This document shows positions 2,827-24,436 of a stretch of 64,000 bases of DNA, one piece after another (the first letter of the stretch is position 1; every line of letters starts with the position of its first letter). A program made the translations under genes and the position numbers. The DNA comes from a virus. Under the pieces are notes generated by a model. That model searched no databases. It was not told where the DNA came from and saw nothing but the letters and a program-made list of their open reading frames with translations. Location of the stretch: the IMG/VR virus record IMGVR_UViG_3300017917_003388, positions 32,001-96,000 of that record; one strand, 5' to 3'.

Positions 2827-2989
2827 ATATTTTTAAAAAATTAATTGTTGACATGTTTTTTCTTTCACTGAAGTAATCTAAGGCATCTTCTTCAGATTGG
2901 GAATATATTCTATCTATTGCTTCTTTGTTTGGATCATTTTTAATATAGGAAAAATATTTTTTATAATTTTTAGATTCAAATGTATTCAT
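2807..2989 (-). CDS. Hypothetical protein
   Basis: ORF track. Confidence 0.55.
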   Translation of the reverse strand: MNTFESKNYKKYFSYIKNDPNKEAIDRIYSQSEEDALDYFSERKNMSTINFLKIYAIGSE

Positions 2990-3046
2990 AATTTTATTAT
3001 TTTTTAGTTTATTTAAAATAAAAAAAATTTTTTAAATTCCAAATTT

Positions 3047-19723: not shown

Positions 19724-19960
19724 TTAATTAGTTTTTTCTTCTATTAAATTATTTTCTTCTATTATTTGTGCATCGTCTATTTTATTTACAAAATAATATT
19801 TATGTTGTTTTTTTAACACTGTATCACAACCTAAATATTTTCTATATTCTTGTATTTCATCTTCATGTATTGTTTCTTCTTTAATAATTCTGTTAACAAT
19901 ATATAAGTTGTTTTTATAATTAATTATTATTTTATTCATTTCAAACATCTTTTTTAACAA
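19724..19960 (-). CDS. Hypothetical protein
   Basis: ORF track. Confidence 0.6.
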   Translation of the reverse strand: MLKKMFEMNKIIINYKNNLYIVNRIIKEETIHEDEIQEYRKYLGCDTVLKKQHKYYFVNKIDDAQIIEENNLIEEKTN

Positions 19961-20717
19961 TATAATATGTGCTACTTATATTACCTACATTAAATGAAAG
20001 TTTTAATAATCCTTCTAAATTTATATCCATATATGCCGATTCTGCATCTTTATTTACATTTAATATTTCTTTAAATAAATCAGAATTAAATCCTAACTTA
20101 AAATCAGACATGGGATCAATAAATGATTCTGATAAATTAATTGTTGAAAGATTATCTTTTATAAAATAACTAACTTTATTAGAATATTCTATATCTCCAC
20201 CAAATATTAATTCCAAACTATATTCAGATGAAAGTTCAATATCTGAATTACATTTTATCATTACTGTAGAACTATCATCTAATGCTGATTTTGCTTTTAT
20301 AAGAGATTGAATTATTTCTTTGTTTAGAATTGTTTTCAAATTATACTCTTCAGGACCATTATATTTTCCTGCTTTAGGAATTGTGATAGTATCAGCTAAA
20401 GTATATGAAACATTAAATTGATCATCAAATATATTTAATTTACTATATATATTACCATGTTTGGTTAAATCAAGATATACATCATTATTCATAATTGATA
20501 TAAGCTTATTTAATTGAGAAGTATTAAATATACCTATATTTGAATCACACAGATTAAAATTATTATGAGAAATAATACCTACCATTTCCCTGTTGGGAGA
20601 AGTAATTTTAATATTCAAATTTTTATTTTCTATATTCCATTCAACTGATTCTATTAATCCATTTAAATAATATTTATTTATAAGAGACTGAAATTCTGGT
20701 TTTTTGATTAGAAACAT
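19941..20717 (-). CDS. DNA polymerase sliding clamp (gp45/PCNA-like)
   Basis: Size, beta-rich pattern, INLEGLLKLSF...STYYIV ending, replication context. Confidence 0.65.
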   Translation of the reverse strand: MFLIKKPEFQSLINKYYLNGLIESVEWNIENKNLNIKITSPNREMVGIISHNNFNLCDSNIGIFNTSQLNKLISIMNNDVYLDLTKHGNIYSKLNIFDDQFNVSYTLADTITIPKAGKYNGPEEYNLKTILNKEIIQSLIKAKSALDDSSTVMIKCNSDIELSSEYSLELIFGGDIEYSNKVSYFIKDNLSTINLSESFIDPMSDFKLGFNSDLFKEILNVNKDAESAYMDINLEGLLKLSFNVGNISSTYYIVKKDV

Positions 20718-20906
20718 ATGGTTTTTTAATTTTAATTTAAATATAAAATAAATAATTTTATAATCCCAATTATAGTAAAGAAGGAATATCTTGAAGATTA
20801 TTAGCTAATTTTACATAGATTTGTGTTTCAACAAAATTTATATTTTTATTCATATAATTTATTAATTAATTAGAGAGTATTACGTCTAAGTATACGTTGT
20901 AGGCAA

Positions 20907-21134
20907 TTAGTTTGCTTTCTGTACTGCGTCTACCATTCCTTCAAGGCAATTATCACAGCAAGTCGGTTTAGCATCATCATTGCAATATTCGCAAACTAAC
21001 TGTTCGCTTCGCCCTACAACAGCGTGTTTACGCAATGCTTCTGCATACTCTTCTGCAAAATTCATAGCCATTTCTAATGTCCAATTCCTTGTTTCAACCA
21101 TTCGTGTTGATTTGTAATAATCTTTTGCTGTCAT
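20907..21134 (-). CDS. Cassette A hypothetical protein (MTAKDYY..., Cys-rich tail)
   Basis: ORF track; likely start at the ATG at 21134. Confidence 0.6.
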   Translation of the reverse strand: MTAKDYYKSTRMVETRNWTLEMAMNFAEEYAEALRKHAVVGRSEQLVCEYCNDDAKPTCCDNCLEGMVDAVQKAN

Positions 21135-21190
21135 TCTATTTAAGTTTTTAGTTGTTGAATCGCACTGCGTAAACACGCAAAACGTTAGCT
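21013..21190 (+). repeat. attC-like site 1 (long loop)
   Basis: CCTACAAC-A-GCGTGTTTACGCA ... TGCGTAAACACGC-AAAAC-GTTAGCT; 13-bp perfect arms at 21022-21034 and 21166-21178. Confidence 0.7.
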
Positions 21191-21394
21191 TCAATTGTCT
21201 AACCACCGCACACCTTTACCATCAAAAACATAAAATTCCTCATCTGAATTTACGTTTTTAAATTTCATCCCCCAACCAACATTTGTTAAGTCTGCACCCA
21301 TGCAAATTGCTGTTGCTTGGTAATGCGGATGGTTTTTATCAATTATCATTGCTTTTTTACCATCGAATTTTGTGTCTTGATGTTTCTGCTCCAT
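21191..21394 (-). CDS. Cassette B hypothetical protein
   Basis: ORF track; lies between GTTAGCTT and AAGCTAAC. Confidence 0.65.
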   Translation of the reverse strand: MEQKHQDTKFDGKKAMIIDKNHPHYQATAICMGADLTNVGWGMKFKNVNSDEEFYVFDGKGVRWLDN

Positions 21395-21434
21395 TTTATG
21401 TTTTTTATTAATTTAATCCAACGCAAGGAAACTA

Positions 21435-21518
21435 AAGCTAACAGCACCTACCAGCAATAGCTGCATAAAGCTATCGCACTACCAAAGCTACTGCAATGGT
21501 AGCTGCAAAACGTTATAT
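21435..21518 (+). repeat. attC-like site 2
   Basis: AAGCTAAC...CTACCAGCAATAGCT...AGCTACTGCAATGGTAG...AAAAC-GTTATAT imperfect palindrome. Confidence 0.75.
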
Positions 21519-21533
21519 TTAATTTAAAAATTT

Positions 21534-21647
21534 TTATGGATAGTATTGTTTATACCCCATCCATAAAAATATTATTATCGAACCTACCAACACTATTGCG
21601 AGTATTACATCTATTATTTGTCTGAAACTACCTTTGTAATCATCCAT
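21534..21647 (-). CDS. Cassette C 37-aa single-pass membrane peptide
   Basis: Manual translation MDDYKGSFRQIIDVILAIVLVGSIIIFLWMGYKQYYP. Confidence 0.55.
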   Translation of the reverse strand: MDDYKGSFRQIIDVILAIVLVGSIIIFLWMGYKQYYP

Positions 21648-21713
21648 GTTATTTGTATAAAAATTTTTGATATTAAATATAACAAAGAATATATGTAATA
21701 AATTTTTGTTTTC

Positions 21714-21849
21714 CTAATCTTTAATTCCTAAATCTTTCTTTAATTTTTCAAAAGACGATTGATCTACATGATATTTACACAAATGTGGTTTCTTAGGAGG
21801 AAGATAATTAGGATCACCCTTACGAATTTGTGGTTGTTTTTTTTTTCAT
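21714..21849 (-). pseudogene. Small ORF frameshifted in an A10 tract
   Basis: With A9 it would read MKKKQPQIRKGDPNYLPPKKPHLCKYHVDQSSFEKLKKDLGIKD. Confidence 0.4.
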
Positions 21850-21850
21850 T

Positions 21851-24436
21851 CTAAAATGTAAAAAATTTATTTACATTGGGATTTAATGATGGAAATTCCC
21901 AAGATAGATCATCATACAATGATTTTAATTTATTTGCTAACAACGATTCAAATATTTCCTCTATATTTATATATGTTTTAACAAATTCTTCAATTTCTGC
22001 AGGAATTTGGGCATTTGGTAAACCAATTGTTTCTAAATTATATGGGTTTTTCTTTAAATTAATAATGAATATCTTATCACCCTCAATAATAGATTCATAT
22101 TTTTTATCTAATTCTTTAAATTTAAGTAAATCATTATAACGTACTGCTGCTTTTGTATTACTTGGGGCTTTTAATTTAAATGAACTAAATATATCCCCTG
22201 TTCTAGCTGGTATCTGATATGCTGATATTTGTTTTACCCCCGTAGGTTTACCTAATTGTCTAGGATCTAGTGTTTTCAATGTTTTGTAAAAACCAATCAC
22301 ATCATTATCTATTTCGAATTTGGGTTTACCAAATAATATATTTTTAATAAAATTTTCTCCAAATTCTTTAAATAATTTATTCATATTGGACTTCATTAAT
22401 TCAAGTCCTTTCATATCTAGTTCTTCTACTGCAACACCTTCTTTGTTGGTAACATACATCGCATAACGACGTTTACCTGTTGTAAATACACCAGCACAAA
22501 TTACCTCTTGTTTTAATTGGAAATAATGAGTACCTGGTTTAATGTTGAATAAATTTTTACAAATAGTATCTAAATTAGCGTTTGATTCGTTTTGGATCTC
22601 AATAGCTAATTCTAGTATTTTATCATTTTTATCTTCAGGTTTAAGATTTAGAAATCTATGTTTAAGTAAATCCCCTAATACTATAAACATTGAATCAGTA
22701 TCTGAAAGACAAATGTGTTGTTTTTCTATTTTTAATTCAGTGTTTATTTTATTGTTTACAAAATTAATTGATTCACAAGTTAATCTTTGACCTGAGTTAG
22801 TGATAGCAGCACTACAAATTAAATATCCATCAGTGTATCTCCACCCGTTGATAGCAAAAGTCCCATAAAGTGCATTTTGGAGGATTTTAAAACTATGTTG
22901 ATATAAATCGTATAACTTATAGTTGGTCCAATCTTCGGCTTTACCTGCTATTTTCTTTAAACCACGATAATGTTCTCGTTTTTCAAACCAACCTTCTAGA
23001 ATTTTAGCAACTATGCTCTTTTCATCGGTTCTAAACATAGTTCCGGAAGCAGCAATTGTATATTCGTTTTTCTCAATTATATCAATTAAATCACCTATTT
23101 TAATAGTTGTAGATTTAAGTGTATAATTTACTTTATTTAACTTTTCAATAGTAATTATTTCATTAGGATCACGTTCTTTAAGTTTTTCTAATGAATGGTT
23201 TTGTTCATAAGTTGGATTGTGATCTACTTTAATCCTACCCACTAATGTTTCAATACCTAAATTCAATGATTTAATAATTGAAGGATATAGAGATGTAAAG
23301 TCCAAGTCAATTACATCAAAATATAGACCTGGAATTGGTTCTAATAAATATCCTCCAGCATAGCTTTCTTTAGTATTTTTTAGTATTGGATTATGAGTGG
23401 TAGGTTTATTTGGTGAAACAATACCTTCACGTTTAAGATATTTTAATATAGCACCCTCATTCATTACAGTATTGTAATAAATACTTTCATAAGGTATATT
23501 ACAAATATGTGAAATCATGATAGTTAACTCAATAAATTTAAGTTTTTCTTCTAATTTTTCAATAATTTCAACGTCTCGCAAGTTATATTCAATAAACGCA
23601 TTTAAATCATTTTTAAATAATGTGTTTAAATTACCTTCATATTCGATTTTACCTAATTCTACATATTTAATTCCAATATCTCCTAATTTATATGATGGTT
23701 CTTCCTTCATAATATATTTTTTATGAAGCAACATATAATCTAAGTGATTAACTCCACCAATTCGAATTTGAATCCCACCCGTAAATTCTGAGTAATCGAT
23801 TTTTCTAATTGGAGACATTCTTAGTAACTCATCAAGACCTACTATTTTCATAAGTCTAAAGTATAAATAAGGAATATCAAAATAAGCACTATTCCATCCA
23901 ATGATAATAGTTGGATCTAGTTCTTCAAATTTATCTAGAAATCGTTTTATTAATTCTTTTTCAGAACCACAAGGGATAATATGTTTACCATCTTGATTTG
24001 TTTCTTGTATTTCTTTACTTTTATCTACAATAAAACATATTTTTTGTTTTGTAGTTACATCTATTAAAGCAATAGAAGTAATAGGCATTGGGGCAGCCTT
24101 AATATATTCTGGTGTAAGTGCTCCCCCAATTTCGATCTCAATATCCAGATATAAAACATTATGCCAAGATGGAACAACATCATCAAATTTATAATAAAGT
24201 TCCCTCAATATAAGTAGTTCCTTATTAATATCCTTTTCTAATAAATTAGGATCTTCTTTATTGTATTTTTTAGTAGGTACAGCATATCCACCTGTTAAAA
24301 TAGGTTGAGCACCCTCTTCCCATTTATTAACACGTTTCCAATATGTTTGTTGATATTGAAATTGTAACCACCCTTTCACATCATCGCGTAAATGATATGT
24401 ATAATCACTGTAATCAAAATAGACTGATTGATACAA
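21851..24436 (-). CDS. Family B DNA polymerase
   Basis: DIE exonuclease, DFTSLYPS, KILQNALYG, SDTDS. Confidence 0.95.
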   Translation of the reverse strand: MYQSVYFDYSDYTYHLRDDVKGWLQFQYQQTYWKRVNKWEEGAQPILTGGYAVPTKKYNKEDPNLLEKDINKELLILRELYYKFDDVVPSWHNVLYLDIEIEIGGALTPEYIKAAPMPITSIALIDVTTKQKICFIVDKSKEIQETNQDGKHIIPCGSEKELIKRFLDKFEELDPTIIIGWNSAYFDIPYLYFRLMKIVGLDELLRMSPIRKIDYSEFTGGIQIRIGGVNHLDYMLLHKKYIMKEEPSYKLGDIGIKYVELGKIEYEGNLNTLFKNDLNAFIEYNLRDVEIIEKLEEKLKFIELTIMISHICNIPYESIYYNTVMNEGAILKYLKREGIVSPNKPTTHNPILKNTKESYAGGYLLEPIPGLYFDVIDLDFTSLYPSIIKSLNLGIETLVGRIKVDHNPTYEQNHSLEKLKERDPNEIITIEKLNKVNYTLKSTTIKIGDLIDIIEKNEYTIAASGTMFRTDEKSIVAKILEGWFEKREHYRGLKKIAGKAEDWTNYKLYDLYQHSFKILQNALYGTFAINGWRYTDGYLICSAAITNSGQRLTCESINFVNNKINTELKIEKQHICLSDTDSMFIVLGDLLKHRFLNLKPEDKNDKILELAIEIQNESNANLDTICKNLFNIKPGTHYFQLKQEVICAGVFTTGKRRYAMYVTNKEGVAVEELDMKGLELMKSNMNKLFKEFGENFIKNILFGKPKFEIDNDVIGFYKTLKTLDPRQLGKPTGVKQISAYQIPARTGDIFSSFKLKAPSNTKAAVRYNDLLKFKELDKKYESIIEGDKIFIINLKKNPYNLETIGLPNAQIPAEIEEFVKTYINIEEIFESLLANKLKSLYDDLSWEFPSLNPNVNKFFTF

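Follow-up and report, generated by a model that had tools for sequence, protein, structure and literature searches.

Integrons are bacterial platforms that move whole, promoter-less genes, and their classical recombination sites, attC, measure about 57 to 141 nt. In sedentary chromosomal integrons, the Vibrio cholerae repeats (VCRs) are long attC sites (about 120 nt) that are conserved within the lineage and surround unrelated cassettes. Sites located inside coding sequence are found in shufflons (Rci/sfx) and in the Gin/Cin tail-fiber switches of phages, where protein ends are exchanged in frame. T4-type phages carry PeSL cassettes, reportedly described by Arbiol and colleagues in 2010, in which small accessory genes of hyperplastic regions have conserved stem-loop motifs on their flanks and undergo modular shuffling mediated by these motifs.

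Virulent phages, one of them a phage of Polaribacter, have been reported to carry clusters of attC sites without an integrase (CALINs) (Qi et al. 2023, PMC9892861). One site of the Polaribacter phage, P12002L_attC1, is composed of TAAC, 6 nt, a perfect stem, 2 to 3 nt, and GTT, lies on the sense strand of the neighboring genes, and is the one phage site without verified IntI1 recombinants, while P12002L attC2 has the classical orientation and recombined with IntI1 (PMC9892861). In classical sites, the L box has two or three extrahelical bases, placed on the arm that faces the AAC of the bottom strand, which is the strand recombined (PMC5027507). Published bottom strands fold more stably than top strands by 2.1 kcal/mol, and IntegronFinder 2.0 reports a single complete integron in Bacteroidetes.

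Here, we describe a locus in a 64,000-nt stretch of phage DNA (hereafter, the window) taken from a complete record of 174,694 bp with terminal repeats, corresponding to a phage of ∼175 kb. We consider it reasonably probable that positions 20896 to 21190 are the recombinase-proximal cassette of a three-cassette, integron-like array (∼20896 to 21696) located between a DNA polymerase gene and the next conserved gene.

Results

A G+C-richer island of small genes downstream of PolB

The minus strand of the A+T-rich window carries the genes for GroEL/GroES, the clamp loader, and PolB. PolB ends at position 21851 and the next conserved gene (258 aa) occupies positions 19941 to 20717, with ∼1.1 kb in between. 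Within this interval, positions 20897 to 21514 form an island of 35 to 41% G+C, versus 17 to 26% in the flanks, the extent of which is exactly that of two hairpin-plus-gene units (Table 1). As read in the initial annotation, the three ORFs of the array are antisense and follow phage transcription: all lie on the minus strand, like the flanking PolB and 258-aa genes.

Pfam and PHROG assigned no family to ORFs A, B, and C. ORF A has 83 homologues at an E value of ≤0.01, with lengths of 60 to 114 aa, and since these begin with a conserved MTAKEYYKSTR, the ATG at 21134 is favored and the upstream GTG at 21206 is not required. The AlphaFold2 model of ORF A, computed with the mosaic alignment described below, was too poor for use (mean pLDDT, 62; pTM, 0.30). 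Relatives of the locus were recovered through PolB, while a blastn search with 5 kb against 50,697 phage records gave no match and a peptide-pattern search with the 258-aa neighbor recovered no relatives. The 23 matches of a 17-mer of front module A across IMG/VR were all due to chance, as were the only two matches (snoRNAs) returned by Rfam at a permissive threshold for positions 20000 to 22500.

Table 1. Features of the array and of its surroundings (positions in the window)
Feature	Position	Strand	Description
Tyrosine recombinase relic	20770-20853	-	MNKNINFVETQIYVKLANNLQDIPSLL; 27 codons, first 9 plus last 18; ∼237 codons deleted
A+T-rich spacer	20854-20895	-	From recombinase start to first cassette; candidate attI-like insertion region, judging by position
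3' conserved 20-mer	20896-20915	-	GCAAACTAATTGCCTACAAC (coding strand); closes back module; contains stop codon and terminal box CCTACAAC
ORF A	20907-21134	-	75 aa from ATG; front module (codons 1-38), joint, then Cys-rich back module
Invariant 30-nt joint	20991-21020	-	GTTGTAGGGCGAAGCGAACAGTTAGTTTGC (coding strand), read as VVGRSEQLVC
Hairpin site 1	21013-21190	-	Box, AAC, spacer, 13-bp stem, 131-nt loop, stem, spacer, GTT, box
Unit B	21184-21442	-	Box GTTAGCTT (coding strand, 21442-21435), leader, ORF B, box AAGCTAAC; 8-nt complementary boxes
ORF B	21191-21394	-	67 aa
Hairpin site 2	21440-21514	-	75 nt, imperfect
Unit C	21512-21696	-	12-nt boxes GTTATATTTAAT/ATTAAATATAAC around ORF C, plus 3' arm remnant of older hairpin (21684-21696)
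ORF C	21534-21647	-	37 aa, membrane ORF

A hairpin that encloses the start of ORF A

On the plus strand, site 1 consists of CCTACAAC (21013 to 21020), A, GCGTGTTTACGCA (21022 to 21034), the 131-nt loop, TGCGTAAACACGC (21166 to 21178), AAAAC, and GTTAGCT (21184 to 21190). With the outer boxes included it is 178 nt long, and the AAC-to-GTT span is 169 nt, which bears out the earlier estimate of ∼178 bp for a site longer than classical attC. The loop contains a leader, the ATG, and 32 codons of ORF A. The proposed start at 21134 does lie in the loop between the two arms, and the stem arm does serve as coding sequence, arm plus GTT being translated as A-L-R-K-H-A-V-V (LRKHA is the arm).

Site 1 is the only AAC...GTT hairpin with 12/12 stem pairs in the 64-kb window. 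A looser scan of this A+T-rich window, at 10/12 pairs, returned ∼100 matches versus ∼93 in shuffles; at that level, such hairpins are no commoner than expected, as would be the case if site 1 were an inverted repeat that had arisen by chance across an ordinary small gene. Against this reading stand the uniqueness of the 12/12 stem, its covariation over dozens of loci, the invariance of synonymous sites, and the chained boxes described below. Site 1 is above chance because its arms covary in other loci, and this covariation refutes the chance-repeat reading, the probability of which we regard as negligible.

The hairpin family is built into genes in a fixed phase

Orienting the related loci by gene direction, we assembled 27 nonredundant hairpins located between box-AAC and GTT-box. 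The coding strand of all 27 has the layout AAC, 3 to 6 nt, stem, loop, stem, T, GTT, and the longer spacer is in every one that on the 5' side (3 to 6 nt, G rich, first base G), the 3' spacer usually being T. The family spans 57 to 195 nt. In the 25 near-perfect stems, cognate arms pair at 11.5/12 positions versus 5.6/12 for noncognate arms, and RNAalifold recovered the stem from 12 hairpins, with compensatory changes in 7 of 11 pairs and three conserved G.U positions. The loops of the ∼120-nt hairpins in this 12-hairpin alignment also show a semiconserved ..AAAGCAC..AACT(A/T)(T/A).. (columns ∼45 to 70), which may be a promoter or a translation-start element.

We counted as GTT-crossing any ORF of at least 45 aa with a reading frame that continues across the 3' arm and the GTT. 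The start codon of such an ORF was found within the hairpin in 20 of 34 segments (19 distinct ORFs), and these start-bearing hairpins are the long ones (85 to 195 nt, nearly all >108 nt); in most of the other hairpins, chiefly short (57 to 90 nt), the gene starts 8 to 53 nt past the GTT. The GTT is in phase 0, and is read as Val, in 18 of 20 ORFs that cross a GTT, and still in 10 of 12 when the ORF A family is excluded (expected, one third; P ∼ 5e-4). Many units end with ..TAA/C, the stop codon being inside the closing TAAC box. The idea of a phage cassette class in which a recombination-type hairpin doubles as coding sequence, put forward from site 1, thus describes a recurrent design: coding through the site is a feature of the class and not an oddity.

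The stem pairs of the 27 hairpins, read on the coding strand, comprise 400 Watson-Crick, 36 G.T, 2 A.C, and 16 other pairs (G.T versus A.C, binomial P = 5e-9), and with DNA parameters the coding strand is the better fold in 25 of 27 cases (−14.7 versus −12.0 kcal/mol). A G.T bias would arise equally from mRNA folding. The hairpins might then act in mRNA only, as an open loop at the start or as processing marks, and the reshuffling described below would result from homologous or microhomology recombination between co-infecting phages at the 20- to 30-mers, with no site-specific enzyme. The G.U wobbles at fixed stem positions, on the transcribed strand only, fit this explanation, as do the start codons and A-rich leaders in the loops.

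Chained complementary boxes delimit the units

Each unit opens with GTT plus a box and closes with the complementary box plus AAC. The coding strand of the array reads GTTATAT, ORF C, ATATAAC; hairpin 2; GTTAGCTT, ORF B, AAGCTAAC; hairpin 1 with the ORF A front; and GTTGTAGG, the ORF A back, CCTACAAC, so that the chained pairs are GTTGTAGG/CCTACAAC, GTTAGCTT/AAGCTAAC, and GTTATATTTAAT/ATTAAATATAAC. Chained complementary boxes of this kind are the footprint of integron cassettes. Complementary boxes of 8 to 16 nt around ORFs amount to 228 pairs in the related arrays versus 127 expected. A jumbo phage (L005:1-8078; IMGVR_UViG_3300000931_000001, 265,845 bp) has 48 GTT-box...box-AAC pairs versus 11 expected, with boxes of 10 to 16 nt and a small recombinase ∼2 to 3 kb onward, across the contig ends.

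The boxes are difficult to reconcile with hairpins that act in mRNA only: complementarity across genes of 100 to 800 nt has no obvious RNA role and is the expected footprint of a circular intermediate, and at their junctions unrelated units have nothing in common but AAC/GTT, too little for homologous recombination.

The boxes of unit B bracket another gene in the related contig L090. The loop of site 2 contains a dead 17-codon ORF in frame through the GTT (..GAVSF.. and then a stop). The L090 hairpin at 2911 to 3033 shares the stem base of site 2 and GAVSF, and there the loop starts a live 77-aa ORF. Sequence comparison suggests that ORF B, which has its own start, replaced the original body between the same boxes.

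Unit C is considered an older cassette because it is A+T rich; 53 nt of it are homologous to an L090 hairpin arm and leader (83% identity; E value, 3e-8). The possibility that a third site is split between the two ends of the array was not borne out: on the right, the array ends with the 3' arm of this older hairpin; on the left lies the spacer that precedes the recombinase relic; and no complementarity was seen between them. The location downstream of PolB is variable among relatives: L088 has its next gene after 47 nt and no cassette, and L089 has an unrelated 85-aa gene. The divergence of these two loci was too great for the junction to be placed, and no nucleotide-exact empty site was recovered from them.

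Breakpoints at AAC and GTT and an invariant joint between modules

The hairpin bases are also where similarity between loci begins and ends. Hairpin 1 and front module A are common to the window and L040, with similarity running from (T)AAC/GTTTTGC to ..CACGCT GTT/, and similarity to the ORF B homologue in L092 runs to AGCTAAC and not one base beyond. The same back module is preceded and followed by differing hairpins. In L044 (2491 to 2697), a recombinant front module A has an upstream arm of the GTGTATGCGTA type and a mismatched downstream arm of the TTGCGCCAACCGCC type (as in L012), suggesting that exchange is possible inside a module too, breaking the stem.

The alignment of ORF A homologues is a mosaic in which one front occurs with many backs and vice versa: clustering of 60 distinct proteins gave 49 groups of fronts and 28 of backs, in 58 combinations, with counts for the two modules of ORF A itself inflated because the sample was seeded with ORF A. 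Over the 41 loci of these homologues, VVGRSEQLVC is encoded by one 30-nt sequence, the synonymous sites of which are invariant across ∼30 unrelated contexts, and the 20-mer GCAAACTAATTGCCTACAAC follows nearly every back module in any reading frame (39 unique joints), being read as ..AN-stop or lying just behind the gene's own stop, depending on the gene. The joint and the 3' element are therefore conserved at the DNA level. The two elements pair with each other, and their variants covary (GTTAGCAGT/ACTGCTAAC and GTTATAAGT/ACTTATAAC; TTAAATTG/CAATTTAA in Cellulophaga phage phi19:3). The resulting back-module hairpin, with GTT and AAC outside, was considered as an attC and rejected, the triplets being at the wrong helix end on both strands. 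The 30-mer is the longest stretch common to family members, as would suit homologous recombination without a site-specific enzyme.

The initial annotation proposed to test whether genes for proteins with [HD]xVVGRSEQL always have an upstream inverted arm ending in one given sequence. The association itself held: 29 of 35 joints of this type have a complementary arm upstream (at least 12 of 14 positions pairing with the codons before the GTT) versus 8 of 58 controls, and AAC plus 2 to 8 nt precedes the arm in 24 of these 29. The exact sequence, AACGTTTT, was present in only 5.

The heptamer d(GCGAAGC) is an unusually stable DNA mini-hairpin, and in the joint GCGAAGC forms a 10-nt bulge between two helices. 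GCGAAGC is also found at the tip of the aadA7 attC (PMC9892861 supplement).

Further occurrences of the joint are in 12 viral contigs, one prophage, and one CRISPR spacer. The spacer, 36 nt long, is in Haoranjiania flava (NZ_JAOTPL010000010.1; L084:6047-6082), in an array of 30-nt repeats adjoining cas3-cas4-cas1-cas2, and matches exactly the joint and the preceding "IHD" codons; this match suggests that a Chitinophagaceae host targets the one sequence that such phages cannot vary. The only other match among 185,579 species genomes is in Pelobium manganitolerans (Sphingobacteriaceae; NZ_MBTA01000003.1, L085:2422-2697), where a joint-bearing family member lies in a prophage-like region with terminase, DNA methylase, and PAPS reductase. 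Two cultured flavobacterial phages have the joint in genes annotated as hypothetical, Cellulophaga phage phi19:3 (gp032, L087:2385-2609) and Tenacibaculum phage Gundel_1 (gp62, L086:2379-2606), and phi19:3 has a 418-aa tyrosine recombinase directly behind its row of small genes.

A small Xer-like recombinase and its relic

L090 and L098 are one contig from a relative of the window phage (PolB, 66% identical), in which PolB is followed by two ORFs, at least eight cassettes, a 264-aa tyrosine recombinase, and a homologue of the 258-aa gene. A 27-codon ORF 43 nt from cassette A in the window is related to this enzyme: its residues 10 to 27 are identical (18/18) to the C terminus (residues 247 to 264) of the recombinase (L098:1195-1989), its residues 1 to 9 match the N terminus at 6 of 9 positions, and the DNA alignment spans both ends and the downstream spacer. 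These matches confirm the ORF as a relic of the array recombinase. At the position equivalent to the spacer, 44 to 80 nt of A+T-rich DNA with a TATA(T/C) motif are present in L098, L095, and L015.

Homologous recombinases (39 to 42% identical; 267 and 278 aa) are found in the 265-kb phage and in L015, downstream of the arrays and codirectional with them. In NCBIfam, these enzymes (264 to 278 aa) fall among Xer and integron integrases but below every cutoff; for TIGR02249, they score 150 to 168 bits versus a cutoff of 265, and the 315-position IntI profile is matched in two pieces. The associated recombinase is thus not an integron integrase by the NCBIfam cutoffs.

The complete genome of the window phage contains no tyrosine recombinase (no PF00589 match), Y1 transposase, or serine recombinase. 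This agrees with hairpins that act in mRNA only; the dedicated recombinase family at the array ends of three unrelated phages, together with the relic here, argues against them, and on balance we find that explanation rather improbable. Because the recombinase is here a 27-codon relic, the array would be frozen unless the enzyme were supplied in trans. IS200/IS605, REP/RAYT, and serine-recombinase readings were discarded, as the genome lacks a Y1 transposase and a resolvase and the box sequences vary.

Polarity of the sites

The initial annotation considered the plus strand as the possible top strand, in which case the genes are reversed relative to their sites. The position of the relic, the boundaries of whole cassettes, and fold stability favor this polarity, and the extrahelical-base rule speaks against it. 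The plus strand carries, in order, the recombinase relic, the spacer, G/TT, cassette A with a distal hairpin, and cassette B with a distal hairpin, an arrangement analogous to classical integron geometry with the genes reversed. Under this polarity, each unit is a complete gene with its leader, and hairpin 2 and its boxes indeed recur jointly around another gene in L090. By the fold rule, the genes would be on the bottom-like strand, since the coding strand folds more stably. The polarity check by extrahelical bases gave the opposite result from the one initially considered: it is the coding strand whose AAC arm has the extra unpaired bases, and this is a trait of top strands. The rule based on the extrahelical-base arm and the rule based on fold stability therefore point in opposite directions. 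Also at odds with reversed polarity are the stops in TAAC boxes, which is the classical arrangement, and the front/back reassortment, which needs a crossover on the GTT side.

With classical polarity, the coding strand would be the top strand and each hairpin the attC of the upstream gene, with a G/TT crossover on its 3' side, and the front module in the loop would be a start-codon donor fused in frame to the next cassette. This would account for the stops in or beside box-TAAC before each hairpin, as in classical cassettes, for the unpaired bases of the coding-strand AAC arm, and, through the G/TT crossover, for the phase-0 GTT and the free reassortment of fronts and backs; in Polaribacter phage P12002L, the IntI1-competent attC2 lies after its gene with the sense strand as top. 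Several observations conflict with it. Back module A is followed by a differing hairpin at every locus, and front module A is linked to back modules and not to upstream genes. The last unit of the window would have no site, the first G+C-rich element would lack a body and consist of a site alone, and the relic would sit at the hairpin-less end. In addition, the more stable fold is that of the coding strand. We consider classical polarity unlikely and lean towards reversed polarity, with the plus strand as top and the genes on the nonclassical strand. Both hairpin bases are likely used, since a unit keeps no stable linkage to its hairpin on either flank.

Comparison with integrons and other shuffling systems

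The sites resemble attC in being hairpins with AAC/GTT at the base, beside central spacers (site 1, CCTACAAC ... GTTAGCT; all 27 related hairpins), and the arrays resemble integrons in that they collect unrelated small genes. Likewise, the box at the start of a unit is complementary to the box before its site (cassette start TTRRRY versus its own R'' box; three box pairs in the window), and an Xer-related tyrosine recombinase stands at the array end in relatives. The architecture is that of P12002L_attC1, the look-alike that IntI1 failed to recombine, and the two hairpin sites in the window are 250 nt apart without a functional recombinase, which can be compared with the CALIN definition of at least two attC sites with no integrase nearby.

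The differences concern both sites and enzyme. In contrast to classical L boxes, the stems are perfect except for fixed G.T wobbles, and extra bases are found solely in the spacer of the coding-strand AAC arm. Spacers are asymmetric (3 to 6 versus 1 nt), boxes measure 8 to 16 nt, and sites reach 195 nt and contain start codons. Site 1 exceeds the classical length, and more than half of the segments hold a start and coding sequence where attC is noncoding. Instead of an adjacent IntI with its specific additional domain, the window genome has the relic only, and, unlike in integrons, the genes point towards a recombinase of 264 to 278 aa. Because they lack L-box extrahelical bases and their recombinase is below the IntI cutoffs, we regard the sites as integron-like and not as classical attC.

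The lineage conservation of VCRs is paralleled here by the invariant 30-mer and 20-mer; however, VCRs are noncoding and conserved end to end, whereas here conservation is confined to the stem bases, and a variable coding module occupies the loop. PeSLs combine an intergenic promoter with a stem-loop, recombine by homology, and are not known to have AAC/GTT chaining, a dedicated recombinase, or coding overlap. Shufflon and Gin/Cin sites are duplex and invert segments within one locus, whereas the sites here are hairpins and modules are traded between genomes. Our literature search found no paper that deals with the small recombinase, with the invariant joint, or with sites that overlap coding sequence in this way.

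Discussion

A cassette array with recombinase-driven exchange is, in our judgment, the best explanation of this locus, and one we hold with some confidence. We propose that each hairpin belongs to the gene that follows. Short hairpins lie within the leader. In long ones such as site 1, the loop encloses the leader together with the start codon and the front module, and the gene continues across the 3' arm and, in phase 0, across the GTT (Val) to reach its body. We infer that the catalyst is the small Xer/IntI-like tyrosine recombinase, which would exchange strands at AAC/GTT, at the base of a folded single strand, probably the one designated by reversed polarity. Exchange on the AAC side would move whole genes, and exchange on the GTT side would swap front and back modules in frame.

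More tentatively, and with the odds somewhat against so broad a statement, Bacteroidota phages may have their own integron analogue, in which a small Xer-like recombinase acts on coding-strand hairpin sites set in a fixed phase (entry at GTT, read as Val; exit at the TAA of TAAC), and gene movement and in-frame module swapping depend on one enzyme. Since the sites are built into the genes in a fixed phase, a single enzyme would both move whole genes and assemble new small proteins. The idea can be tested at the bench, as phi19:3 and Gundel_1, which have genes of the family, and Polaribacter phage P12002L, which has the sites, are cultured.

Integron logic in these phage genomes would differ from that of bacteria by a smaller, distinct recombinase, by a gene polarity reversed relative to the site, and by sites placed in coding sequence in a fixed phase. 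The host CRISPR spacer against the joint indicates that hosts exploit the conservation of the element. Were the mechanism true, it might also offer a compact tool for structure-guided recombination. Phages could then exchange accessory genes and also compose new small proteins out of swappable halves, so that prokaryotes would have a recombinase-driven equivalent of exon shuffling. Such a process would help to account for the hyperplastic regions, rich in small orphan genes, that are seen in phages of a phylum of major importance in the environment and in the gut.
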